From a virus, in the UHGV virus genome UHGV-0214148: a stretch of 64,000 nt of DNA. One strand, 5' to 3'. Made by a program: the position numbers and the translations under genes. Position 1 is the first letter of the stretch. Each line of letters opens with the position of its first letter. Positions 31,347 through 63,180 of the stretch are shown here, piece by piece. A model generated the notes under the pieces. The model searched no databases, was not told where the DNA came from, and saw only the letters and a list, made by a program, of their open reading frames with translations.

Positions 31347-31372
31347 CCCTCACCTAAGTAATATATATCTGA
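31347..31372 (-). promoter_or_regulatory. conserved 26-bp promoter-like element, copy A
   Basis: CCTCACCTAAGTAATATATATCTGA, nearly identical to copies at 35726 and 55204, each 47-76 nt upstream of a minus-strand start codon. Confidence 0.45.
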
Positions 31373-35725: not shown

Positions 35726-35752
35726 CTCTCTCCTAGGTAATATATATCTGAG
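35726..35752 (-). promoter_or_regulatory. conserved 26-bp promoter-like element, copy B
   Basis: CTCTCTCCTAGGTAATATATATCTGAG, 47-73 nt upstream of the 35679 start and just downstream of terminator 35766-35796. Confidence 0.45.
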
Positions 35753-51439: not shown

Positions 51440-52213
51440 TTAAAAGATAAAATGACCAGTTAATGCTTCTGCTTCAACACCAGGCATCGATGGAGGTGCT
51501 GAATATGGAAAAGTAAGACGCACGGTTGCGCCCTTTAAATACGCAATACGGTAGTACGTGGTCAAGAGCGCATTCCCGTAAGTACAATCGTTATAGAAGA
51601 AACCTTCGGTGGCAAACGTCTTTTCGTTGATTTTCGAATAGACTAAGATACCTTCAACTTTACCATCTTTACGGCAGCACAAACCTTCTGCTGCACCAAT
51701 CGCTAACAATTCCAGGCAGCGCGTATCCAAATTGACATTAACCACCTTAGTGATCGTAATCGTTTCTTCTAACGTTAGAGATTCAATATCATCTACATCA
51801 GGCAAATCGGTGCGAACTTCAGGTTTTTCAGTAAACGTCAGCTCATAATCGATGAACGACGGCTGCATACGCAAGAACGCCATTAACTGATCGCGACGTT
51901 TTAGGTCATTGGCAGGGTATGTGACATCAAACACCTCTACATTTAACAAACGTTTGAGTTGTGCGAAATTAATTTTCTTCTTCGCAAACACAACGATTGC
52001 CGACATGTAGAAAATCTTACCATCGGCGCGACCGGAGAAGACACATTGCAGCTGATTCGTGTTCGAAAGAATGATAAAGGTCGGATCTTCAGATTCGCGA
52101 ATGATGTCTTTTTCTATCAACCCTTTTCGTAGACGGGTTAGCGAAACTATTCTACCGCCCACACCAATTGCTAAATGGTCATTACGATAATCGTCAATAT
52201 CCACTATACGCAT
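51440..52213 (-). CDS. hypothetical protein (257 aa)
   Basis: ORF length. Confidence 0.55.
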   Translation of the reverse strand: MRIVDIDDYRNDHLAIGVGGRIVSLTRLRKGLIEKDIIRESEDPTFIILSNTNQLQCVFSGRADGKIFYMSAIVVFAKKKINFAQLKRLLNVEVFDVTYPANDLKRRDQLMAFLRMQPSFIDYELTFTEKPEVRTDLPDVDDIESLTLEETITITKVVNVNLDTRCLELLAIGAAEGLCCRKDGKVEGILVYSKINEKTFATEGFFYNDCTYGNALLTTYYRIAYLKGATVRLTFPYSAPPSMPGVEAEALTGHFIF

Positions 52214-53028
52214 TAGAGCACTCCCAGTAATTCAGTCACTGTTTTCCGAGCGGCACCAGACGCACCCATATAGCGACCGACCTCAATACTGCGCCACTCA
52301 AAACCGTAATAAATTTCTCGGGTGAGTAGGGTGTCTGCATTTGACAGCACGACGCTGTTGCCACGTCCCACCTGCTGCTGTAGTAACTTGGCTAATTCAC
52401 GATGATCCGTTTGTGAGAATTCTTTACGGTGGTATTGCGCGTGTTTCGCGGTATCCGATAACGGAATATAAGGAGGATCAGCATAAATCACGGCATCTTC
52501 AGGTGTCCGTGCTAATACAGAACGAAAGTCCTCACAAACAATTTCTAGATACTCAACTTCTGCGCAACGTTTAGCCCAATCCCGAATTTCTTCTAATGGA
52601 TAATAAACGCCATTCGGGTAACGTCCAAACGGAACATTGAACCCACCACTACTGTTATAGCGACACATCCCGTTATAACCGTGACGCATTAAGTATAAAA
52701 ACATTGCAGCACGTTCAACTTCGGTCATCGTTTTACCGCTATTAAACAGTTCACGACGTTCCATATACTTTACAGTGGTATTGCCGTCTAAGAACAACGG
52801 TTGCGATGCAGCGATCAGTTCTTCAGGCTGTTCACGCGCAACACAAAGTAAGCGTATCAAATCGGGGTTAGAATCCGATAGAATATACCGGCTGTAATTC
52901 GTATTTAGGAAAACAGACCCTGCGCCCACAAACGGTTCTACAAAGGTTGAACGTTTAGGTAAGACCTTTTGTAATTCACCCAAAACGCGTGTTTTCCCAC
53001 CCATCCATTTAATTATCGGTTTCCGCAT
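52213..53028 (-). CDS. dam: DNA adenine (GATC-type) methyltransferase, Dam family
   Basis: VEPFVGAGSVFLNTNYSRYILSD, LYLMRHGYNGMCRYN..GGFNVPFGRY and DPPY motifs closely parallel E. coli Dam (recalled from memory). Confidence 0.9.
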   Translation of the reverse strand: MRKPIIKWMGGKTRVLGELQKVLPKRSTFVEPFVGAGSVFLNTNYSRYILSDSNPDLIRLLCVAREQPEELIAASQPLFLDGNTTVKYMERRELFNSGKTMTEVERAAMFLYLMRHGYNGMCRYNSSGGFNVPFGRYPNGVYYPLEEIRDWAKRCAEVEYLEIVCEDFRSVLARTPEDAVIYADPPYIPLSDTAKHAQYHRKEFSQTDHRELAKLLQQQVGRGNSVVLSNADTLLTREIYYGFEWRSIEVGRYMGASGAARKTVTELLGVL

Positions 53029-54007
53029 TATATCCGCCTTGTAACGATGACACTTCGTCGACTAACACCAATTTGACATGATTTTTCTGACGCTCCCAAC
53101 TGACGACGTTTTCGTCACGCACTAAAACAAATTCGTATTCGTAGGGGCGAAATTTAAATAATTCGACGGCCAGGTGCCTGAATGCAGGGTTGTTATTGAA
53201 ACACCCTATTTCTAATGGTGCCGCTGTTGTCGATGCAATTTGTAGAGCACGATACAATAAAGTCCGTCCGATACCACGACCCCGATGTGTCTCACTTACC
53301 GCAATGGCTTTTAATTCACACTCGTTAAGATTACGCAATTTAACTTGCACCGCGCCCACAATATCGTTGCCGTCCATCCAAACGTAGGTGTGGTGGTTGA
53401 CGTGGCGTACTAACTCCACCAACGTTTCGACTTGTGGCATGATTTGACGTGAGCGACTCACAGGGTCAGCGTTGATGTTTTCAACGACACTCGTACCCAA
53501 AAGCAACATAAGCTGTTCACGTTGTGCGGCAGTTAACTCTTTATAAAAATCGCCGGAAATGTTCTTCACGTTTGTTGGTAGAGCGATATCCAACAACGAG
53601 CGTGTACCTAAGCGATACGTAGTGTGGGTGTGTCTAAATCCTAAGTCATTAAGCTCAGCGATTTCTTCTACACCACTGGCGATTCGATTAAGGTACGTAA
53701 AACCGGTATAGTCGAGTACCAGTAGCAGGTTCAGTTTGTTCAAACAACCCGGTACAATTTCATGCATATACAAGCAGTGTAACGTTGGGTCGCCGTAAAT
53801 GTGTTTTGTGATGATAAACCCTTGGATTGTTTTTCCTTTTTGTAAAGAGAACGTATTCAGTTCACTATTGCACAACGCCTCACGAATCACAGCACCGTTA
53901 GGGCCCGATAAACATGCCTGAAGTTGAGGGTTGCGAATATCTCTACGTGCTAACCGACCTACTGTTAAATCCGTGGCGGTATGTTTTATAATCTTCATAA
54001 AAGCCAT
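53009..54007 (-). CDS. protein with C-terminal GNAT acetyltransferase domain (332 aa)
   Basis: ETHRGRGIGRTLL acetyl-CoA-binding motif in the C-terminal part. Confidence 0.55.
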   Translation of the reverse strand: MAFMKIIKHTATDLTVGRLARRDIRNPQLQACLSGPNGAVIREALCNSELNTFSLQKGKTIQGFIITKHIYGDPTLHCLYMHEIVPGCLNKLNLLLVLDYTGFTYLNRIASGVEEIAELNDLGFRHTHTTYRLGTRSLLDIALPTNVKNISGDFYKELTAAQREQLMLLLGTSVVENINADPVSRSRQIMPQVETLVELVRHVNHHTYVWMDGNDIVGAVQVKLRNLNECELKAIAVSETHRGRGIGRTLLYRALQIASTTAAPLEIGCFNNNPAFRHLAVELFKFRPYEYEFVLVRDENVVSWERQKNHVKLVLVDEVSSLQGGYNAETDN

Positions 54008-54071
54008 GTTAATTACTCCTTAAAAGGTCGTCTCAAAACAATACGCTAAAGTTGTAAAAACAAAAAAGAAA

Positions 54072-54089
54072 GGGGAACCGAAGTTCCCC
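54072..54089 (-). terminator. intrinsic terminator
   Basis: Stem GGGGAAC/GTTCCCC with loop CGAA; A-rich flank. Confidence 0.5.
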
Positions 54090-54101
54090 AATTATTAAAC
54101 A

Positions 54102-54773
54102 TCATGCAGAAGGGGCAGAGTTTGTAAAAGCAAGATTGGGTGTCAAGCCAGCTTTCCCTAATTTTTCATACAGGTAATTGAAAAATCTGAGATGGGCGTC
54201 GTAGTGGCCAGCCGCTACTCGCTGGCCGTAAACTTCTACCAAGTCAGGCGAAAACTTAATATGGCAGTTTTGTCTAGAGAACAAAGGTTGTTGCACCCCA
54301 CCCTTAATTAAGATGCGATACTTTTTACCGTCGTCTGTTACGGCGTGAAGAATATTTGTACTGAAATGGAAATAGATAGAAGGGTTAAAACACAACCAGG
54401 TGGCGGCATTGATTAGTAAGTCAGCTAACTTAACAGCGATTTTGTCAAGTTCAGGCCCTTCAAACTTATGCATTAACCGCAGAAGAATTTCAGTAATAAC
54501 CGTGCCTGTAAGTAATTTGTCTCTATTAAGACCAGGTGCAACCGCCAAAACATCACCATTATAAGTGCAGACAAGTGTGAATAAGTTGAAAGGCTGGTCT
54601 TGATAAAGTTCGAAAACCAGGTCAGTATACGGGCTAAAAGTTAAGAATTTCACCCCGAGTATTTCATTAACGCAGGGTAAAAGCTCAACTTTCACAGGCG
54701 GTTGAGCTTCGTTAACTTTAGTCTCGTTCTTTACAGCTTCTTCAATTACGGTTTTACCAATTTTCGGTGGCAT
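54102..54773 (-). CDS. hypothetical protein (223 aa)
   Basis: ORF length. Confidence 0.5.
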   Translation of the reverse strand: MPPKIGKTVIEEAVKNETKVNEAQPPVKVELLPCVNEILGVKFLTFSPYTDLVFELYQDQPFNLFTLVCTYNGDVLAVAPGLNRDKLLTGTVITEILLRLMHKFEGPELDKIAVKLADLLINAATWLCFNPSIYFHFSTNILHAVTDDGKKYRILIKGGVQQPLFSRQNCHIKFSPDLVEVYGQRVAAGHYDAHLRFFNYLYEKLGKAGLTPNLAFTNSAPSA

Positions 54774-54794
54774 GATAATACTCCTTCAGGTTGA

Positions 54795-55154
54795 TTAGTG
54801 TGTTGCGGCGTTAGTGATAAAACGCACATTCTTCGTGGTGCGTTTAATGGACGTGTTTGCAACGTAGTCCAACGCGGACTCTACGTGAACGGTTACTGAG
54901 CAACGACCCTTAACGGAATTAAAACTAATCTGGTATTTCAGACGAATCGCATCAGCAACTTTCATCATAATCGGCAAACTTAAACGTTCTGAGTGATCGT
55001 TCTTAATAGACGAGATAACGGGTTGTGAAACTTTCGCAAGCTGGGCAAGTTCACGCTGAGTAATGTCTTTTGTGGTCAAATGACGAATTACGTAAGACAA
55101 GTGAAGACCGAATTTACGCTTTGCCAGAATGATGGAATTGTGATTGTAAGCCAT
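54795..55154 (-). CDS. helix-turn-helix transcriptional regulator (XRE-like)
   Basis: ITQRELAQLAKVSQPVISSIKN helix-turn-helix signature; sits downstream of promoter-like element C. Confidence 0.6.
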   Translation of the reverse strand: MAYNHNSIILAKRKFGLHLSYVIRHLTTKDITQRELAQLAKVSQPVISSIKNDHSERLSLPIMMKVADAIRLKYQISFNSVKGRCSVTVHVESALDYVANTSIKRTTKNVRFITNAATH

Positions 55155-55203
55155 TGTAAATACTCCTTTAGGTTAACAAGTCGGTGTAAAGAGTTAATCA
55201 TAA

Positions 55204-55230
55204 CTCTCACCTAGGTAATATATATCTGAG
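55204..55230 (-). promoter_or_regulatory. conserved 26-bp promoter-like element, copy C
   Basis: CTCTCACCTAGGTAATATATATCTGAG, 50-76 nt upstream of the 55154 start; terminator 55246-55267 lies immediately upstream. Confidence 0.45.
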
Positions 55231-55245
55231 AAAAAATAAAATATA

Positions 55246-55267
55246 GGTACCACCGTTGGGTGGTACC
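55246..55267 (-). terminator. intrinsic terminator
   Basis: 9-bp stem GGTACCACC/GGTGGTACC with loop GTTG. Confidence 0.6.
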
Positions 55268-55274
55268 TAAGCGG

Positions 55275-55898
55275 TTAGTTTGCTAAAATGTGCGTAACAA
55301 TCTCAGCGGCTTTCAAACGGTAATCGTCATTCTGCGTTACTGGTAATAATGCGTGAAGACAACCACCTTCTGTTAAGATGTGATGCGCGAAACGATAATG
55401 GTCGCGTAAGCCATCCCAAGATTGGTTGTCCTTTAGGTACTTAACCGTAAGTACCTCATCGTCCCAATTCTTACCTTGTTCTTCTACACGTTTCTTAAAT
55501 CGCGCTAACGCTGTTGGGTAATCAACATCTGTCCAAATATAAAGGTCTGGCGTGTGGAAATGACGAGTTAGCTTACGTTGGAAAACTACGTCCTTGCCAT
55601 CTGTCCCCTGATAAACAATCGTTGAAGGGCAAAAACGATCGAAAATAACGACATCGTACTCGTCAACAACATGGTCTAACGTGTGAAGGAAGTCATCACA
55701 CATTGCTTCAGCAATTTTTGTTTTCGAAGCAGACTGTACAACCAAGCTACGTGCACGAATACCCGCCTCGGTTTCAGACGTCGGATGGTTCCGAATACAC
55801 ACTTTTAATCCTGCGGACTCCAACATCGCTTTTACCATTTTACACAATGTTGATTTCCCAGAAAAATCAGGACCATCAATAGACACTGTCTTAAGCAT
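55275..55898 (-). CDS. thymidylate-kinase-like (d)NMP kinase
   Basis: P-loop IDGPDFSGKST and DRF.PS.IVYQG block resembling the TMPK DR..S..YQG motif. Confidence 0.7.
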   Translation of the reverse strand: MLKTVSIDGPDFSGKSTLCKMVKAMLESAGLKVCIRNHPTSETEAGIRARSLVVQSASKTKIAEAMCDDFLHTLDHVVDEYDVVIFDRFCPSTIVYQGTDGKDVVFQRKLTRHFHTPDLYIWTDVDYPTALARFKKRVEEQGKNWDDEVLTVKYLKDNQSWDGLRDHYRFAHHILTEGGCLHALLPVTQNDDYRLKAAEIVTHILAN

Positions 55899-55986
55899 TA
55901 TTGTTTTACCTTTTTACGCACGTTAAGTGAAACCTCTCACAATGAGAGTAACAGTTGTAATAATTTACAATAAAAAAAGAAACCCG

Positions 55987-56006
55987 CCCCTACCGTTAAG
56001 TAGGGG
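55987..56006 (-). terminator. intrinsic terminator
   Basis: Stem CCCCTAC/GTAGGGG; A-rich flank. Confidence 0.5.
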
Positions 56007-56013
56007 TAAGGTT

Positions 56014-56619
56014 TTATTGGTGATCAACAATCGGATCACTCCACACTTCTGACGTTTGTGGTGCGGTGAGGTTAGCAGCCTGTGCAGATGTTACGCACAG
56101 CAAGACTAACCCTTGTTTAGCAAGATAATGTTGCATTCTTGCAGCCTGCACAGCGGTGTCCACAATAACGAGCTCAGCGCCACGTAGAAGCGTTAGAGCC
56201 GCTTGACCCTCTTGCGGTGTGGTTAAGGCATCACTGTCGTCCAGAATGCGTTTAAGGCGGTTATACGCCAGCCCAGTTACATTACTTCGACCTGCACGAA
56301 GATCGACAACCATATCGTTGTATTCCCCCACCACTTGTTGCGTCGAATTGGGATAAAATCGAAACGCGGCACGGCGGCGTTTACGACGCACCTCAGAAAT
56401 CGCGCGTTGTAAAACCAGTAAAACGTATTTCGGTGCCGCTTCGCTATTCGGACGACGCATCTTAGCTAAACGTGCAGCTAAATCCAAAATTTTCGTTAAG
56501 GGATAGCGGTGTTTAAACCCGTCACGTTCGATAGTAACGCCACGCTTAGGCAACTTGCCCGTTTTGTTGATATACGATACTGTAATCAATAGTAATGAAT
56601 CGAGAATCATCTCTGACAT
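56014..56619 (-). CDS. hypothetical protein (201 aa)
   Basis: ORF length. Confidence 0.5.
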   Translation of the reverse strand: MSEMILDSLLLITVSYINKTGKLPKRGVTIERDGFKHRYPLTKILDLAARLAKMRRPNSEAAPKYVLLVLQRAISEVRRKRRRAAFRFYPNSTQQVVGEYNDMVVDLRAGRSNVTGLAYNRLKRILDDSDALTTPQEGQAALTLLRGAELVIVDTAVQAARMQHYLAKQGLVLLCVTSAQAANLTAPQTSEVWSDPIVDHQ

Positions 56620-56633
56620 TACAAGGCCCTCTC

Positions 56634-57005
56634 TTAGAACCCCTCAAGAACAGCTTTCACAAATTCATAAACCGTGCGTCGGTGTTCTTCAAGCGGATAA
56701 ACAAACTTAGAATAATCGTTGTTCCAGACAACCGGATAGAGGTCGCCGTCACAACTTAAATAGCTCTTACGAACCATGTAATAATCTAAACCTACACGGA
56801 AGTTTAACGACAGGCTCCCGTGTTTACTACAAACGTGTAGCTGGAGCGATTTCACACCGTCATGGGTCGGCGATTCAATCGTTTCCGCATACAATACATC
56901 CGAACACTGTTCTATAGTGCTAACGACATCTCTGAGGTTGTTGTCCGCATCGATGGTCGCTTTTCGGAGAGCGTCGGTGTATTGCTGAAGTTCTCGATAG
57001 AACAT
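56634..57005 (-). CDS. hypothetical protein (123 aa)
   Basis: ORF length; overlaps the 3' end of the upstream ORF by 94 nt. Confidence 0.45.
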   Translation of the reverse strand: MFYRELQQYTDALRKATIDADNNLRDVVSTIEQCSDVLYAETIESPTHDGVKSLQLHVCSKHGSLSLNFRVGLDYYMVRKSYLSCDGDLYPVVWNNDYSKFVYPLEEHRRTVYEFVKAVLEGF

Positions 57006-57544
57006 CCTGCTAATCTCCTGTCTCTACCGTATGGCAGAGGAAATGCTTTGTGTTCAAATTCTGCAACGACATACGCAGGATAGAACAAAAGGTATTTATA
57101 GAACGTAGCTAACGTAACGTCTTTCGGGGTGGCTAAGAAGTAATTAAGATCGGGGTTGTCTGGAAAAGCAAAATGCAACCCTGTGTATACCTGACCTTTG
57201 TACTCCCCATTAAAGGGCGTCACTGCACATCGTGGACGTGTTGGTTCGACGTGTAACCAACGACTCCCTACGTGATAAACACCACGTACCGCCGCGTTTC
57301 GTGTTTTACCCAAATAACGGCAACGGATATTCTTTTCCCACGCAGCACGTTGGGTGGGTGAACCCAGAGAAACAAACCGCGTTAAAGCTTCAGGTGTAAA
57401 GTAATCAAAAATGCCCGTCGGTAAATACCAGCACGCCTTATCGATTCGTACCACTCTCCAACCAGGACGAAAACCCACAGCGTAACGCTCTACACCAAAA
57501 GTATATCTAGACCCGTCGTGAAACGGTACGAATCTTGCAGCCAT
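56912..57544 (-). CDS. hypothetical protein (210 aa)
   Basis: ORF length; low-complexity C-terminal tail within the overlap. Confidence 0.45.
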   Translation of the reverse strand: MAARFVPFHDGSRYTFGVERYAVGFRPGWRVVRIDKACWYLPTGIFDYFTPEALTRFVSLGSPTQRAAWEKNIRCRYLGKTRNAAVRGVYHVGSRWLHVEPTRPRCAVTPFNGEYKGQVYTGLHFAFPDNPDLNYFLATPKDVTLATFYKYLLFYPAYVVAEFEHKAFPLPYGRDRRLAGCSIENFSNTPTLSEKRPSMRTTTSEMSLAL

Positions 57545-57545
57545 T

Positions 57546-58013
57546 TTAGATTTCCTTTATCATTTCCCTGCATTCAGTACGGAATCCCATTTTCTCATAC
57601 AAGGAGATAGCTTTAACGTTGTTGTCTAACACATCCAAACTCATCCAACCACAACCTTTGGACTTTCCATATTCACGGACTTTGTCCATAAGTGCACGAC
57701 CCACCCCTTGAGAACGCGCTTCGGGAATCACGTAGTAGTTCCCAATATAAACAAATGTGTCCTTCGAGCAAGAACCCATTGAAAAGGTCATAATTCCCAG
57801 AAGTTGTTCGTTGTCATCCACGGCACACGCACAGAGATAATCTTGGGGCCAGATCTCTTCTAAGTGTTCAATTGGGTTGAACGTGTCGCGTCCGGTTAAC
57901 TGACTAATACGCACTTTCTCTTCTGCGAACAACATGTTGTGCAGTTTGAGTACCTGGTCGCCGTATAACTTTCCGTATTTACTGTCGGGTTTGAGAATAA
58001 TAGTGATACGCAT
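57546..58013 (-). CDS. GNAT-family N-acetyltransferase (155 aa)
   Basis: ARSQGVGRALM acetyl-CoA-binding motif. Confidence 0.7.
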   Translation of the reverse strand: MRITIILKPDSKYGKLYGDQVLKLHNMLFAEEKVRISQLTGRDTFNPIEHLEEIWPQDYLCACAVDDNEQLLGIMTFSMGSCSKDTFVYIGNYYVIPEARSQGVGRALMDKVREYGKSKGCGWMSLDVLDNNVKAISLYEKMGFRTECREMIKEI

Positions 58014-59146
58014 TATTTAACCTCAATCAGTGACAACCTGCACCACTCCAGTAACCCTTCCGCAACGCGCACTAACGAGGTAGTAAACGCATCTTCTAAA
58101 CGCAGTGCGTTTTTATAACGTACGGTAGCGTCGCGTAACTCCCGCCCTTCAAGCGACTTAAGTTCCTTACGCATACGCTGAATCTCATCATAAATTCCTG
58201 TATACCCAACACTACGTCGTTTCGCACCACGCTGACGTAACGCTCGGATAATGTTTCTAACGGCGTCGAGTGCTGAACCGATTTCGTGCAAGTTTAGAGA
58301 TTTGATTGTGTGGCCAAAATCACCATCGCGAGCAATCGCCCATTCAATCTTACCGCTGTCGTGTTCAACGACCACCACGTTACCTGGCCACGGATATGCC
58401 TTCACCGTTTTAAACGGATCGATAATACCGAACAGCCCTGCGCTTCGTTTAATCGCCCAGTTCGTTGACCGGCCCACTTTCTCCAAACCGCTCTCGGTAA
58501 CTTTCTTGCTCTTACCGATTAACGTACGTGTTTTAACGGTATACTCGTTGACCATCGCATCCATTGCACTCAGGTTCTTACTGAACTCAATACATGCTTT
58601 TACGTTAGGCTTGTCTTCTAAACAAACTTTGGTTGTCCAACTTCCCGTGTCACAGTCAACCGGTTCTAAAGTGTCCTTGATACCGAGTAAACTTAAACGT
58701 GCTTCTAACTTCTGTAGCTTGCGCTCTAACGACGATGCTTTGGACGTCGCTTCTTTCAGTTCATTAATAACTTCTTTACCGGCGGCTTCCGCGAAGTCGA
58801 TGAAACGTAAGGCCAGCTGCTTAGAATGTTTACCTGCGAATTTTCCAGACGCTTTGGCTCCTGCCACTGCTGCTTTTCCAGCAACGCGTCCAACTCCCTT
58901 AACCGCTCTGCCGGTCGCACGCGCGACCGCTTTACCTACCCCTGCGTAAGGCTCGGTGTCCGCAACAAATTGCGCGCGTTCCATCATCGCTGCGGACTCC
59001 AACGCAACGTGGACATCATCTAAAGCCCACCGTTTTCGGATAGCGACAACCGCTGGATAATTGTCTTTAACATTAAGCGATTCTAACGCGACCAATCGAT
59101 CGTAGTCATCGCAAAGGACTTCTAAATCGGAATCTAATGTTGACAT
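58013..59146 (-). CDS. hypothetical protein (377 aa)
   Basis: ORF length. Confidence 0.55.
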   Translation of the reverse strand: MSTLDSDLEVLCDDYDRLVALESLNVKDNYPAVVAIRKRWALDDVHVALESAAMMERAQFVADTEPYAGVGKAVARATGRAVKGVGRVAGKAAVAGAKASGKFAGKHSKQLALRFIDFAEAAGKEVINELKEATSKASSLERKLQKLEARLSLLGIKDTLEPVDCDTGSWTTKVCLEDKPNVKACIEFSKNLSAMDAMVNEYTVKTRTLIGKSKKVTESGLEKVGRSTNWAIKRSAGLFGIIDPFKTVKAYPWPGNVVVVEHDSGKIEWAIARDGDFGHTIKSLNLHEIGSALDAVRNIIRALRQRGAKRRSVGYTGIYDEIQRMRKELKSLEGRELRDATVRYKNALRLEDAFTTSLVRVAEGLLEWCRLSLIEVK

Positions 59147-59196
59147 CCTTTACCCCATTTTAAGCTAAAGCGGGGAGAAGCCCGCCCTGACTAACT

Positions 59197-59745
59197 TCAT
59201 AATAAGCGTAGGTCTTCTAACCACTTAGATGCATCCGTAACATGATAATAACAAGGGATGTTCAGTGACTGTGCGTAGCGAACACCCATCGCCGTACCCC
59301 CTTTTGGATTTCCCTTTTTATCATGCTCGGCGTAATAATAGACGGCGTCTACATGATCGTCCAAAGAATCACCGGATACAATATTTAAGTTTCGTCCATG
59401 CAACGCCCAAGCTATTTCCGATAGCTTATCAGGATTAGGGTGAAGCGATGCCACAATCCCACGATAACGGACGTCTTGTGGAATAACGCGAAAATCCACA
59501 TTCGGATGTAACTTACGTAACCACAACTTACGTTCGTCAGGCAAATAACAAATATGTGGACCTGGTTCAGTACGTGCTAACATAAACTGTAATTGGTCTG
59601 GTCCTTTGTAACAACCGCCTGACCGCGTTTCGATACTGTGCTGTTTATTACGAAGAATTTTGAACCCACGTTGCAACACATCCAACATTTCTTGCATCGT
59701 GTCTTCGGGCGTTTCTCGAGAACCAATAATAGCAATTTTATACAT
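59197..59745 (-). CDS. SLOG-type (DprA/Smf-like) Rossmann-fold protein
   Basis: N-terminal IAIIGSR, then SGG and a C-terminal GGTAMG block, as in DprA/LOG-like families (recalled from memory). Confidence 0.4.
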   Translation of the reverse strand: MYKIAIIGSRETPEDTMQEMLDVLQRGFKILRNKQHSIETRSGGCYKGPDQLQFMLARTEPGPHICYLPDERKLWLRKLHPNVDFRVIPQDVRYRGIVASLHPNPDKLSEIAWALHGRNLNIVSGDSLDDHVDAVYYYAEHDKKGNPKGGTAMGVRYAQSLNIPCYYHVTDASKWLEDLRLL

Positions 59746-59790
59746 TTGTCACCTCCATACTGAAGTTGTGAAGTGAAAAAAAAAGAAAGC

Positions 59791-59819
59791 AGGAGAGAAC
59801 CCTGAAAAGGTTCTCTCCT
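59791..59819 (-). terminator. intrinsic terminator
   Basis: 11-bp stem AGGAGAGAACC/GGTTCTCTCCT; A-run flank. Confidence 0.6.
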
Positions 59820-59832
59820 ATCGGTGATGTTA

Positions 59833-60495
59833 TCACGCTTCTAAACCACTTAAAACGACGGTCTCGAGTAACGCTTTGCCCATCCAGACGTCCAACTCAC
59901 CATCTAAGCCCCCTAAAGGACGTTTATTCAGTTCGTTGTTGTAATTAAGTCCGTCAAGGGTTTTATTCGTAATAATTTGCCCAATATGAAGCGGTAGAAT
60001 AAATCGATTTCGTGCGCTATAAATAAACGAATCACATTCGTAAATTACCACATAGCGTTCGAGATCCTCATCATACTCAACGTGACACTGCGAGCCCGTG
60101 TCCCATGCACGTGACAAAACCATACCACGGTCTTGACACATCTTCTCCACCGACACTTTCGCGGACTCTGCCCATTTATCGTAATTTTTAGGTTGGCCGT
60201 TTTCGAAATCGAACCAATCCAGATACTTACCGGGAATATCAAGAAAGTCGTTCAATTGAAGTTTCGTGTAAGATATCATCACCGCGTCGTTAATATCATT
60301 GCGGTTAGTTAACTTTACTCGATACCGACCTTCCGGTGTGGGTGCGCCTATTAAAGAAACATCCACTTTCTCAGCCGAAAGCTTTTTACGTACACTGCCG
60401 CTATTACAGTAACTAACGAGGTTGAGTAAGTTCTGTCTATGACCAACTTCAAAATCAATTACAAAAGACATACAAACTCCGCGGGGGTTAATCAC
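59833..60495 (-). CDS. hypothetical protein (220 aa)
   Basis: ORF length. Confidence 0.5.
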   Translation of the reverse strand: MINPRGVCMSFVIDFEVGHRQNLLNLVSYCNSGSVRKKLSAEKVDVSLIGAPTPEGRYRVKLTNRNDINDAVMISYTKLQLNDFLDIPGKYLDWFDFENGQPKNYDKWAESAKVSVEKMCQDRGMVLSRAWDTGSQCHVEYDEDLERYVVIYECDSFIYSARNRFILPLHIGQIITNKTLDGLNYNNELNKRPLGGLDGELDVWMGKALLETVVLSGLEA

Positions 60496-60887
60496 TAATA
60501 CCCGTATAATGGGTACCGTGCGGTGATCTCATCACCAACATAGAAAGTTAAACGTTGAACATTAATACTTTTATTTGCGTAGGGTACAGTTTCTAACGTT
60601 ACCTTTACACTGGCAGAACAACTACCCGGATCAACAAACTGATATGTACGCCGTTTGATGTTTACCAAATAGTAGCCGCCTGCCGGGCACAATTCGGTTT
60701 TACCGTAATTTACCGTGGCGAACTCATCGTTTTGAACTGCAACAACTGGCTGGTCGGTAGATTTAAAAACGACGGGTTTATCGCCCGGCACTGTAGGTTC
60801 AAAACGACTAATATCGTGCGGTTTAAATTCCGCGAACGCGGAAAATGAAAGTAACGTTAGAAATAGGGTAATGACAGTTCGTTTCAT
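60495..60887 (-). CDS. secreted or periplasmic protein (130 aa)
   Basis: Typical signal peptide with an AFA/EF cleavage site. Confidence 0.55.
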   Translation of the reverse strand: MKRTVITLFLTLLSFSAFAEFKPHDISRFEPTVPGDKPVVFKSTDQPVVAVQNDEFATVNYGKTELCPAGGYYLVNIKRRTYQFVDPGSCSASVKVTLETVPYANKSINVQRLTFYVGDEITARYPLYGY

Positions 60888-61363
60888 CGGTCTACCTCAT
60901 CAAGATGATCGCGTAGCCATGGCATCGACTCTAAGCGCGGAATCATATTCCGTGTGTTCGGCGAAAACCATAGCGCTTCACGATATTTCTTTTTGAAACG
61001 TTCCCAGTGATACGAGAAAGGTTTGGGTGTAAAACCGCGCTCTTTTAGCACCTCCTCCCAAACCAAGTCTTTAATAAAATCGTCCACTAAAATTAATACC
61101 AACACTTTCCATTTACTGCGTCGGTAGTGCCGTGTAAAAGATTTGCGGAGATCAGAAAAGTCCTCTCGACGACGAGAACGTACTGCTGGAGTTGCCTTCT
61201 CTTTAAATTGCGAACAAGGATTATGTTGTAGTATCGTTACAGGAACTCCCCGAACACGGCCTGTACGTAAATCAACCTCGTGTGCGGGGATAACTTCAAC
61301 GCAACGTAACACTTTTGCTTTATTGCCTTCCAAGCACCGCGTCTCATATTCGACACGAATCAT
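60884..61363 (-). CDS. hypothetical protein (159 aa)
   Basis: ORF length. Confidence 0.5.
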   Translation of the reverse strand: MIRVEYETRCLEGNKAKVLRCVEVIPAHEVDLRTGRVRGVPVTILQHNPCSQFKEKATPAVRSRRREDFSDLRKSFTRHYRRSKWKVLVLILVDDFIKDLVWEEVLKERGFTPKPFSYHWERFKKKYREALWFSPNTRNMIPRLESMPWLRDHLDEVDR

Positions 61364-61382
61364 TTTGGGCTCTCAACTGTTT

Positions 61383-61859
61383 CTAATAAATCTTATCCGC
61401 AACAGAGAGAAAGATGGGGGTGTTTTCAATAAAATCCACCAAATATCCTTCTTCCGGCGGGGCGTATGACGAATCAACGTTACTGTTCGTCATACGAAAA
61501 TACCGACGGGAGTCACTGGCAATAAACCATCGGTCTATTTGGAAGCCTTTTTTGGAAAAGAAACACAACCCGTCTATGTTTGAGGGATGGACACGACACA
61601 TCACCATTTGACGATCTGAATTAAGTTGAACGTATTTCAGTAAAAAGGAACCTACGCCGCTACGACGAGAACCTTCGGCCACTACCAGATAGATAAGATT
61701 CCCCGGTTCCCAGATTGCAACCCCATGTGTAATATCGTCTTCAACAGCCAACGTGATTCTAACTGGCGTTTCCCGAATCGAATTTAAGTCGTTGACGTAT
61801 TCACGTAATTCAGGAAATTTAGCGGAAATTTTGTCTTCGGTAATATCTAACTGCTGCAT
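61383..61859 (-). CDS. GNAT-family N-acetyltransferase (158 aa)
   Basis: EGSRRSGVGSFLL acetyl-CoA-binding motif. Confidence 0.6.
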   Translation of the reverse strand: MQQLDITEDKISAKFPELREYVNDLNSIRETPVRITLAVEDDITHGVAIWEPGNLIYLVVAEGSRRSGVGSFLLKYVQLNSDRQMVMCRVHPSNIDGLCFFSKKGFQIDRWFIASDSRRYFRMTNSNVDSSYAPPEEGYLVDFIENTPIFLSVADKIY

Positions 61860-62539
61860 TATTGTTCCCCTATCGATAAAACGTTTTTAACAAATTCATC
61901 CCACGTGGTGTTCCCACCAGAAGTAAATAAACTGCTAAGTGGAACGTTTCGATGCTGTGGAATAATCGCATCGAGTTTCGTTACTGGAACTTCGGCCCAT
62001 AAAGCCCAACCGTACAACCCCTCCACTGTTTTTCTCTCACCACGTAGGGATGGCACCCACCAGGTAAACTGTATGAATCTTTTACCGCGACAGATTTTAA
62101 GGCTGGTAGTAAAACCGTGGTCTAACATCCGAACGTCGTCAAACTTACAATTAATCGAGAAAAGACCATAACGGGCAAGTAATCTCCTTATCTGTAACAT
62201 TAGGTCGTTTTGGTATTTGTTCAGTGTGGCAATGTCTACAAAAACCTGTCCCTTCCCAACCCCAAACCCTTTCTTTTCTAAATGCTCCGCTATTAACGCA
62301 GACGTACTCCCCTCTACACCCGGACAATCTAGACTGCCGGATAAAGGTACTGCACGATAATAGCGATGGAGCGTCTCTTGAAAAGCCGCCGTAAGAATTT
62401 TTTCCTCTTTAACGAAATCAACAATTTCCCCATTAGAGGTGACCAGCGGTCCAACCTTCAGGTCCTGAATAGGTATCAGTAACGTTCTGGTCATTAAGCG
62501 TAATGGTTCCACAATAGCACTCCTTCTTTTAAGTCTCAC
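61859..62539 (-). CDS. hypothetical protein (226 aa)
   Basis: ORF length. Confidence 0.5.
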   Translation of the reverse strand: MRLKRRSAIVEPLRLMTRTLLIPIQDLKVGPLVTSNGEIVDFVKEEKILTAAFQETLHRYYRAVPLSGSLDCPGVEGSTSALIAEHLEKKGFGVGKGQVFVDIATLNKYQNDLMLQIRRLLARYGLFSINCKFDDVRMLDHGFTTSLKICRGKRFIQFTWWVPSLRGERKTVEGLYGWALWAEVPVTKLDAIIPQHRNVPLSSLFTSGGNTTWDEFVKNVLSIGEQ

Positions 62540-62573
62540 AGTATGTTTAAAAATTGTAAAAATAAAAAGAAGT

Positions 62574-62597
62574 AACCTCTACCCGAAGGTAGAGGTT
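62574..62597 (-). terminator. intrinsic terminator
   Basis: 10-bp stem AACCTCTACC/GGTAGAGGTT with loop CGAA. Confidence 0.6.
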
Positions 62598-62601
62598 AAT
62601 G

Positions 62602-63180
62602 TTATTTCGTTGTTGGGCTTTCCGTCTTCGACTTAAGCTGGCCTGATTTCTCAAGCTTCTTCTCAACAACTTTTGTGGCTATCTCAAGAGACTTATAAGC
62701 CAACGTTTTAATCGGCCAAGTCGCAAAAACAACCAACGCAAAGAACGGTACCAACGTCACAATCAGAACATCTAAACTGTCTTCTGGAAAATGTTGATGC
62801 GTGTCATAACCCAGGAAACCGGTTACAACAACCGTCGCTAACGTCAGGAGGGCAATAATGAACTTCTGGGGAGCGGATAATTTCGGCCATAAGGTTAGCA
62901 TGGTTTCTTTGCTAATCTCATCCCCTAGAGATTCCACAGCGTCAGTTGCCTGCTGATGGAATTGTTCTGACAGTTTGCCTAAGTTATCGATTAGCGTCGG
63001 GCGTAAGTCGGAAAGAATCTTTGTTCCAGAACGGGTGACGTCAACGTCGACGTCATCCCCATACGCCGCTTTCAAGAGTTTCGTTAACTGTTCAGACTGT
63101 TCTTTACTTAACTTTCTGTTTCCAGCTTGGATCAATAAGTCAAGTATTTCAGTGGGTAGTGCTTGTGTGCTCGGTTCCAT
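62602..63180 (-). CDS. membrane protein with two predicted transmembrane helices (192 aa)
   Basis: Two hydrophobic stretches (IIALLTLATVVVTGFLGY and VLIVTLVPFFALVVFATWPI). Confidence 0.5.
   Translation of the reverse strand: MEPSTQALPTEILDLLIQAGNRKLSKEQSEQLTKLLKAAYGDDVDVDVTRSGTKILSDLRPTLIDNLGKLSEQFHQQATDAVESLGDEISKETMLTLWPKLSAPQKFIIALLTLATVVVTGFLGYDTHQHFPEDSLDVLIVTLVPFFALVVFATWPIKTLAYKSLEIATKVVEKKLEKSGQLKSKTESPTTK

Follow-up and report, generated by a model that had tools for sequence, protein, structure and literature searches.

Why should a phage genome carry three acetyltransferase genes of the GNAT superfamily within 8.85 kb, and do they work together? The question is raised by UHGV virus genome UHGV-0214148, of which a stretch of 64,000 nucleotides was analysed (the window), and by the genes named here G1, G2 and G3 (Table 1). 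An earlier note on this DNA took them for part of an early region and suggested that they serve host takeover or anti-defence by acetylating host proteins, aminoacyl-tRNAs or antibiotics. The reading preferred here, with a probability of roughly 70%, is that the three GNATs are evolutionarily independent and belong to a gene block that SPN3US-like nucleus-forming jumbo phages pass on vertically. They would not constitute a co-functioning early cluster, and G2 would be a head-packaged polyamine acetyltransferase.

That three GNAT genes lie on the minus strand of this region, as previously noted, is borne out by the sequence comparisons. Folds, motifs, synteny, gene junctions, the promoter motif and hairpin positions are seen directly in the window. 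Each protein has exactly one acetyl-CoA motif Q/R-x-x-G-x-G/A (β4–α3), and the mixed β-sheet with the β4/β5 splay of the GNAT fold was found. G1 (48.1 bits) and G2 (67.8 bits) pass the Pfam gathering score of Acetyltransf_1 (20.7 bits), and the G1 match falls in the C-terminal domain, where the motif had been reported. G3 remains under the Pfam gathering scores (Acetyltransf_7, 22.9 versus 27 bits; a second family, 12.9 versus 20.7 bits) and is placed in the superfamily because of its matches to PDB 7DQG and PHROG 7861. Thus, the profile searches, which had been named beforehand as the check that could overturn the claim, support a GNAT fold for all three. Three neighbours were also correctly named, a Dam methyltransferase, a kinase (here a thymidylate kinase, Tmk) and a SLOG-like protein.

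Family assignment beyond the fold gives a different picture. Among the NCBIfam families listed (25 of 34 matched), which include RimI, AAC(6′) and streptothricin acetyltransferases (STAT), curated cut-offs were reached by none of the three proteins. RimI is the top match of both G1 and G2, in each case below threshold (G2, 47.3 versus 86.4 bits), and G2 misses the cut-offs of the resistance models AAC(6′) group E (38.7 versus 140 bits) and STAT (33.1 versus 420 bits). The PaiA model NF053587 is matched by G2 alone among the three proteins (25.3 versus 250 bits), and SpeG does not appear among the matches listed. G2 is not to be filed as SpeG or PaiA; if it acts on polyamines, it would do so as a member of a separate GNAT lineage. 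PADLOC gave no match for the GNATs. Toxin-type GNATs (TacT, AtaT and ItaT) are absent from the PDB sequence matches of G1–G3, and the genes upstream of the GNATs encode proteins of 226–377 aa, not small antitoxins, so that no toxin–antitoxin pair was found. Collectively, the substrates proposed for these enzymes find no family-level support.

The arrangement itself has a history. From 50 to 64 kb of the window, genes run consecutively on the minus strand. When the 8.85-kb region was compared with phage records by megablast, a single match of ~43 nt was returned, corresponding to the repeated early-promoter motif, and no orthologous DNA, and relatives were therefore sought by protein comparison. 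By BLASTP, 18 of 19 window open reading frames (ORFs) map one-to-one, and collinearly, onto gp85–gp106 of Salmonella phage SPN3US; this defines a block at 50.6–63.8 kb, in which identities to SPN3US are 60% for G3/gp88, 47% for G2/gp95 and 30% for G1/gp104. The block is also collinear with the Erwinia jumbo phages Asesino, phiEaH2 and Caitlin. SPN3US (Seoulvirus) and Caitlin possess all three GNAT genes in the order of the window, while the Erskineviruses Asesino and phiEaH2 have G3 and G2 and lack G1. Because the same genes recur in the same order in SPN3US and Caitlin, and G3 with G2 in the two Erskineviruses, the arrangement is inherited and not a chance co-occurrence; G1 is dispensable in some genera. 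The three proteins are mutually dissimilar (pairwise BLASTP, E>0.4) and are assigned to different PHROGs, and they are therefore not recent duplicates. By tblastn, G1 and G3 match solely Salmonella, Erwinia, Escherichia, Proteus, Enterobacteria and Cronobacter phage records, and two Pseudomonas phage records are among the weaker matches of G2.

Proteins identical to those of the window are present in assemblies of Salmonella, E. coli and Shigella isolates. Relatives with 83% DNA identity have been deposited as non-mobilizable ‘plasmids’, namely NZ_CP173450.1 (E. coli 98232, 221,873 bp, circular) and NZ_CP134650.1 (Enterobacter ludwigii, 222,441 bp). The proposed genus ‘Bapsvirus’ (Chimalliviridae) was drawn from bacterial assemblies, with genomes of ~220–249 kb that are syntenic with Seoulvirus (PMC12768965), and the window most likely belongs to this lineage. 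The ‘plasmid’ deposits match the published phenomenon of Bapsvirus and bacterial-assembly-associated phages and are hence already explained (PMC12768965).

What G2 acetylates is suggested by its orthologues. G2 shares 49% identity with phiEaH2 YP_007237670, 45% with Caitlin YP_009292176 and 47% with SPN3US YP_009153389 (gp95); the first two, of 154–155 aa, are positional orthologues encoded directly downstream of an internal head protein gene. Expressed in E. coli BL21 ΔspeG, the phiEaH2 and Caitlin proteins made N-acetylspermidine, and the SPN3US protein gave no spermidine acetylation in that assay (Li et al., PNAS 2023, PMC9992855). Its authors speculated that spermidine acetylation could blunt spermidine-dependent CRISPR or restriction systems (PMC9992855). 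In a five-way alignment of the window with phiEaH2, Asesino, Caitlin and SPN3US, G2 retains all 53 invariant positions. Within the VLDNN segment, the aspartate (D130) is found in the window, phiEaH2, Asesino and Caitlin, and is replaced by glycine (VLGNN) in SPN3US alone; the aspartate is also present in the E. coli 98232 element and in 15 of the 15 members read of the window’s 90% cluster. Y139, in the LY..G segment, is shared by all five orthologues and matches the LY of SSAT2 in alignment, and in SSAT the tyrosine of this α4 segment is the general acid. The best PDB sequence match of G2 is human SSAT2 (2bei, 6.9e-10), with the bacterial polyamine acetyltransferase Dpa further down (8a9o, 5.3e-06). 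Given these conserved residues, including VLDNN as in the active enzymes, we infer that the window G2 is of the active type. The missing D130 may explain the inactivity of SPN3US gp95. By orthology and conserved residues, G2 can be regarded as a putative acetyl-CoA-dependent polyamine (spermidine) N-acetyltransferase.

A second line of evidence concerns the virion. As with spermidine acetylation, head location is taken from the literature on orthologues, and packaging and activity of the window G2 are extrapolated from it. SPN3US gp95 is a head protein, for which twice-purified virions yielded a mean of 41 peptide-spectrum matches (PSMs) and tailless heads 32, a normalised ratio of 1.1 (PMC10052503). 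Its N-terminus is intact and uncut by the prohead protease, and the proteome tables give it no function (PMC10052503, Tables S2 and S6). SPN3US gp94 and gp97 are likewise assigned to the head, and gp91 to the tail (PMC10052503). In the window, the gene for the internal head protein PF12699/phiKZ_IP, orthologue of gp94, ends on a stop codon that shares a single base with the start of G2 (TAATG). Annotations of SPN3US and E. coli 98232 show this one-base overlap too, and in these two genomes, as in Asesino, phiEaH2 and Caitlin, the PF12699 gene is linked to G2. Because the two genes overlap in this way, G2 would be made together with the internal head protein; it may then be packed into the capsid unprocessed and in low copy, as orthology suggests, and would have its effect late in the cell that makes the phage, in the next cell once ejected along with the DNA, or at both times.

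Injection of PF12699 proteins has been shown for phiKZ and Goslar (bioRxiv 10.64898/2026.04.21.720040); the text and supplements on the virion proteome of Goslar, which has a SAT homologue, do not mention an acetyltransferase. It is tempting to propose that G2, packed possibly via the internal head protein, accompanies the genome and the PF12699 proteins on injection and acetylates spermidine before any phage gene expression. This extension is tentative, and we hold it to be rather doubtful. If true, acetylation could open up the polyamine-condensed DNA of the entering phage to the virion RNA polymerase, or it could impair host nucleases or CRISPR adaptation that depend on spermidine. No connection between the head location of gp95 and the spermidine acetylation of its orthologues was found in the open-access literature searched. 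Combined, the two papers suggest a polyamine-modifying enzyme inside the capsid of a nucleus-forming jumbo phage and, if this holds, a new class of injected effector.

Is the block an early region? The 21-nt motif AGATATATATTACCTAGGTGA occurs three times in the 64 kb with at most one mismatch, versus 0 expected. The phiKZ early-promoter motif TATATTAC lies within it, and it is similar to the motif of 201phi2-1 (PMC7058600 Table 2); such motifs are virion RNA polymerase promoters in these phages (PMC7598289). The copy between the Tmk gene and the gene for a helix–turn–helix (HTH) protein is conserved at this position in SPN3US, Asesino and phiEaH2, despite non-alignable surrounding DNA. It is the sole early motif of the block and is transcriptionally downstream of G2 and G3. 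Between it and G1, over a distance of ~1.2 kb, are the HTH gene, ORF 54102-54773 and a terminator-like hairpin. From this position and from the virion status of gp91, gp94, gp95 and gp97, the block is seen to mix virion genes, presumably late, with non-virion ones. The ‘early region’ of the earlier note is therefore not upheld, since orthologues of virion proteins are interleaved, the only early motif follows G2 and G3, and a hairpin precedes G1. A σ70 promoter scan was at chance (21 found versus 23.1 expected). The element TTTTTACAAC, which follows several hairpins, was considered as a middle or late promoter and dropped (13 found versus 12.9 expected).

G3 is the most conserved of the three GNATs between genera (60–68%). 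Its N-terminus is short, with motif A at residue 65, and it has a C-terminal extension. Residues 22–174 of PDB entry 7DQG (‘putative acetyltransferase’) are identical to translated gp88 (SPN3US_0088). Ki et al., in J Microbiol 2022, reportedly described the gp88 structure as an acetyl-CoA complex and a dimer swapping C-terminal helices, and identified no substrate. When 1.84 billion cluster representatives were searched exhaustively with phmmer, only 20 relatives of G3 were returned at E≤1e-3, all of ~160 aa or shorter fragments. G3 appears to be a phage-restricted, acetyl-CoA-binding mini-GNAT of a tiny family. The gp87-like gene and G3 share one base, between the stop of the former and the start of the latter (TAATG), and in SPN3US base 86286 is common to gp87 and gp88. 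The orthologue gp88 was undetected in SPN3US virions and is thus non-virion (PMC10052503).

G1 is predicted from its model to be a tandem GNAT of MshD/VipF-like fold. Its N-terminal half, in which invariant family positions include G72, D73, T75, L76 and C78 as well as L96, L98, D99, T101 and G102, probably forms a degenerate domain in the model, either non-catalytic or substrate-binding. The orthologue gp104 was seen in trace only (3 PSMs in one run) and classed as non-virion (PMC10052503). The best-supported reading of G1 and G3 is that they are intracellular acetyl-CoA-dependent enzymes. The 3′ end of G1 overlaps the start of Dam by 20 nt, the adjacency recurs in SPN3US and Caitlin, and the two genes are presumably co-transcribed. 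Directly downstream of Dam, the gp106-like protein is, with moderate confidence, a candidate cryptic tandem GNAT-like fold, and it lacks the acetyl-CoA motif Q/R-x-x-G-x-G/A.

Several points weigh against the reading of an inherited, non-early set with a packaged polyamine acetyltransferase. Identity of G2 to the orthologues that were assayed or studied by proteomics is only 45–49%. Of the three orthologues assayed, one showed no activity, and the positives come from in vivo over-expression without kinetics (PMC9992855); spermidine may, therefore, not be the physiological substrate. The word-indexed homologue searches for the structure-prediction alignments gave few sequences (4, 12 and 27), and an 11-sequence alignment underlies the G1 model. 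The terminator scan as a whole was at chance, with 17 found versus 14.8 ± 4.1 expected. Middle and late promoters of these phages are not predictable (PMC7598289), so that temporal classes, and with them the presumed timing of all three GNAT genes, are inferred from the virion status of orthologues only. Finally, gp95 gave 54 PSMs in the 37-slice head run, compared with 480 PSMs for the portal (12 copies) and 10,319 PSMs for the major capsid protein (1,615 copies), which translates very roughly into ~5–35 copies per head. Judged against E. coli polyamine pools, this number is too small to exhaust the bulk of the cellular spermidine quickly. Delivery of G2 by ejection may thus be incidental, and G2 is just as likely to act locally, or late in the cell that makes the phage, as to be an injected effector.

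The same observations bear on other explanations. Were the three GNATs early enzymes of host takeover or anti-defence, acetylating host proteins (compare phiKMV Rac, which acts on RNA polymerase α), aminoacyl-tRNAs (TacT/AtaT) or antibiotics (AAC), then the presence of an early motif in the block, with G1 downstream of it, would be expected, as would the non-virion status of the G1 and G3 orthologues, which must act in the infected cell. The sub-threshold RimI matches of G1 and G2 fit as well, and so does the presence among the fold matches of G1 of VipF, a Legionella GNAT that is a secreted effector. In reviews based on comparative genomics, jumbo-phage GNATs are predicted to act like Rac or RimI (PMC7824862, PMC13282480). 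However, the orthologue of G2 is a head protein, and the early motif does not precede G2 and G3, which share their inferred units with virion-protein orthologues. All NCBIfam scores, RimI and AAC(6′) included, fall far under their cut-offs, PADLOC is silent, and neither a toxin-type GNAT among the PDB matches nor a small upstream antitoxin gene accompanies the three. Moreover, nucleus-forming phages bring their own polymerases and have less need to hijack that of the host (PMC7598289). This explanation is unlikely. What survives of the earlier suggestion is a general manipulation of host physiology, in line with the acetylation of spermidine by two G2 orthologues in E. coli; a dedicated early module does not survive.

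Narrower alternatives concern G2 and G1 separately. G2 might acetylate the virion itself, i.e. N-termini or lysines of the co-encoded internal head protein or of inner-body proteins during head assembly, with spermidine as a side reaction. The one-base overlap with the PF12699 gene, the presence of both products in heads, the retention and packaging of a SPN3US orthologue devoid of spermidine activity, and the RimI match (RimI being a ribosomal-protein N-terminal acetyltransferase) would all suit this role; acetylation of spermidine in vivo by two orthologues and a diamine acetyltransferase as the best PDB sequence match speak against it, and we consider it decidedly improbable. The SPN3US proteomics papers, as far as they were accessible, are silent on acetylation of head proteins, but acetylation was not a searched variable modification, and this silence is no negative. 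For G1, action on DNA together with the overlapping Dam, by Mom-like adenine acylation or modification-dependent protection, would account for the 20-nt overlap, its persistence as a neighbour pair in SPN3US and Caitlin, and the second GNAT-like fold after Dam, and some jumbo phages do have Mom-family GNATs (PMC7824862). Yet G1 has no Pfam match to the Mom family at E≤1, its matches being the canonical Acetyltransf_1/7/10, and Dam is kept without G1 in Asesino and phiEaH2, so that the genes are separable. This last explanation is very improbable. The reading of three independent, inherited GNATs, one of them a putative head-packaged polyamine acetyltransferase, is preferred.

Table 1. Features of the GNAT-containing block and early-promoter-like motifs in the window (positions in nucleotides of the window)
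Feature	Position	Strand	Evidence or remark
gp106-like protein, 257 aa, directly downstream of Dam	51440-52213	-	candidate cryptic tandem GNAT-like fold
Dam-type N6-adenine DNA methyltransferase	52213-53028	-	PF02086 1.3e-56; 68% identical to SPN3US gp105
G1, 332 aa, predicted tandem GNAT, orthologue of SPN3US gp104	53009-54007	-	Acetyltransf_1 E=1.6e-12, residues 198-280
G1 C-terminal catalytic-type GNAT domain, aa ~147-296	53120-53569	-	RGRGIG, aa 242-247, 53267-53284
G1 N-terminal GNAT-like domain, aa ~14-133	53609-53968	-	secondary-structure order of model; no Q/RxxGxG/A motif
Terminator-like hairpin and T-run between ORF 54102-54773 and G1	54072-54089	-	
ORF, 223 aa, between HTH gene and G1	54102-54773	-	directly downstream of early motif region
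HTH (XRE-type) DNA-binding protein, first gene after early motif	54795-55154	-	PF13744 2.5e-07; phrog_7126 4.4e-31
phiKZ-type early (virion RNA polymerase) promoter-like motif AGATATATATTACCTAGGTGA	55207-55227	-	upstream of HTH gene, Tmk/HTH intergenic
Terminator-like hairpin, 11 pairs, T-run, after Tmk, directly before early motif	55244-55269	-	
Thymidylate kinase (Tmk)	55275-55898	-	PF02223 1.3e-19; 64% identical to SPN3US gp100
Terminator-like hairpin, end of inferred G2-containing unit	55987-56006	-	
Orthologue of head protein gp97, in inferred G2-containing unit	56634-57005	-	44% identity
G2, 155 aa, single-domain GNAT, orthologue of SPN3US gp95	57546-58013	-	Acetyltransf_1 E=1.3e-18; phrog_3810 3e-43
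G2 motif RSQGVG, aa 100-105	57699-57716	-	acetyl-CoA motif scan
Internal head protein PF12699/phiKZ_IP, orthologue of SPN3US gp94	58013-59146	-	PF12699 1.4e-07, 31.5 versus 27 bits; phrog_2497 2.9e-74; 59% identity
DprA/SLOG-like protein	59197-59745	-	phrog_768 1.3e-43; 59% identical to SPN3US gp92
Terminator-like hairpin, 14 pairs, end of inferred G3-containing unit	59790-59820	-	
Orthologue of tail protein gp91, last gene of inferred G3-containing unit	59833-60495	-	44% identity
G3, 158 aa, divergent mini-GNAT, orthologue of SPN3US gp88	61383-61859	-	phrog_7861 ‘acetyltransferase’ 1.7e-70; PDB 7DQG 6.5e-61 (phmmer)
G3 motif RRSGVG, aa 65-70	61650-61667	-	acetyl-CoA motif scan
gp87-like protein, 226 aa, orthologue of SPN3US gp87	61859-62539	-	phrog_8034 1.1e-11; 24% identity
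Terminator-like hairpin, upstream of gp87-like/G3 unit	62573-62598	-	
Further AGATATATATTACCTAGGTGA copies	35729-35749; 31350-31370	-	motif scan of window

Among the remaining genes of the block (Table 1), neither the DprA/SLOG-like protein nor the gp87-like protein has a Pfam match. ORF 54102-54773 has no Pfam, PHROG or PADLOC match and no counterpart in SPN3US gp85–gp106; it is a lineage-specific replacement at the position of SPN3US gp102/gp103. Two structural details were recorded in passing. The orthologues of gp97 and gp96 (56912-57544, minus strand) overlap by 94 nt in different frames, an overlap annotated also in SPN3US, Asesino and Caitlin. The hairpin upstream of the gp87-like gene is perfect, with 11 pairs, has a terminator score on both strands and lies between this gene and ORF 62602-63180.

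Much of this is known biology. The three genes are already annotated as acetyltransferases in GenBank, in SPN3US and related phages, and the window adds a genus-level member of known families, not a new system. The element with some novelty would be the link of head packaging to polyamine acetylation, as it emerges from the present analysis. G1, G3 and possibly the gp106-like protein represent conserved acetyl-CoA-fold proteins in phages that are common in clinical Salmonella and E. coli isolates.

Compared with known systems, the three proteins differ in how far the likeness extends. G1 resembles the tandem GNATs MshD mycothiol synthase (1ozp), MAB_4324 (7q3a) and VipF (6wqb) in fold only, with sequence identities of 8–13%, and does not share their pathway context; its score against the MshD equivalog profile hidden Markov model is 20.3 bits versus a cut-off of 163, while the two-domain architecture is seen in the model. 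With SSAT2 and Dpa, G2 aligns in the β4–α3 motif, the VLD(W/N)N segment (VLDWN in SSAT2) and the LY..G segment, but the alignment is limited to the C-terminal ~70 residues and stays below the curated family threshold. SPN3US gp95 is 47% identical to G2 and has the same one-base overlap with gp94, and it differs in the glycine that replaces D130 and in its lack of spermidine activity. With the phiEaH2 and Caitlin enzymes, G2 has in common the 53 invariant residues, VLDNN and the LY..GF tyrosine; these enzymes belong to other genera, are <50% identical, and their activity is known as product accumulation in E. coli. G3 and SPN3US gp88 (7DQG), finally, are 60% identical over 156 residues and agree both in the acetyl-CoA motif and in the gp87 neighbour.

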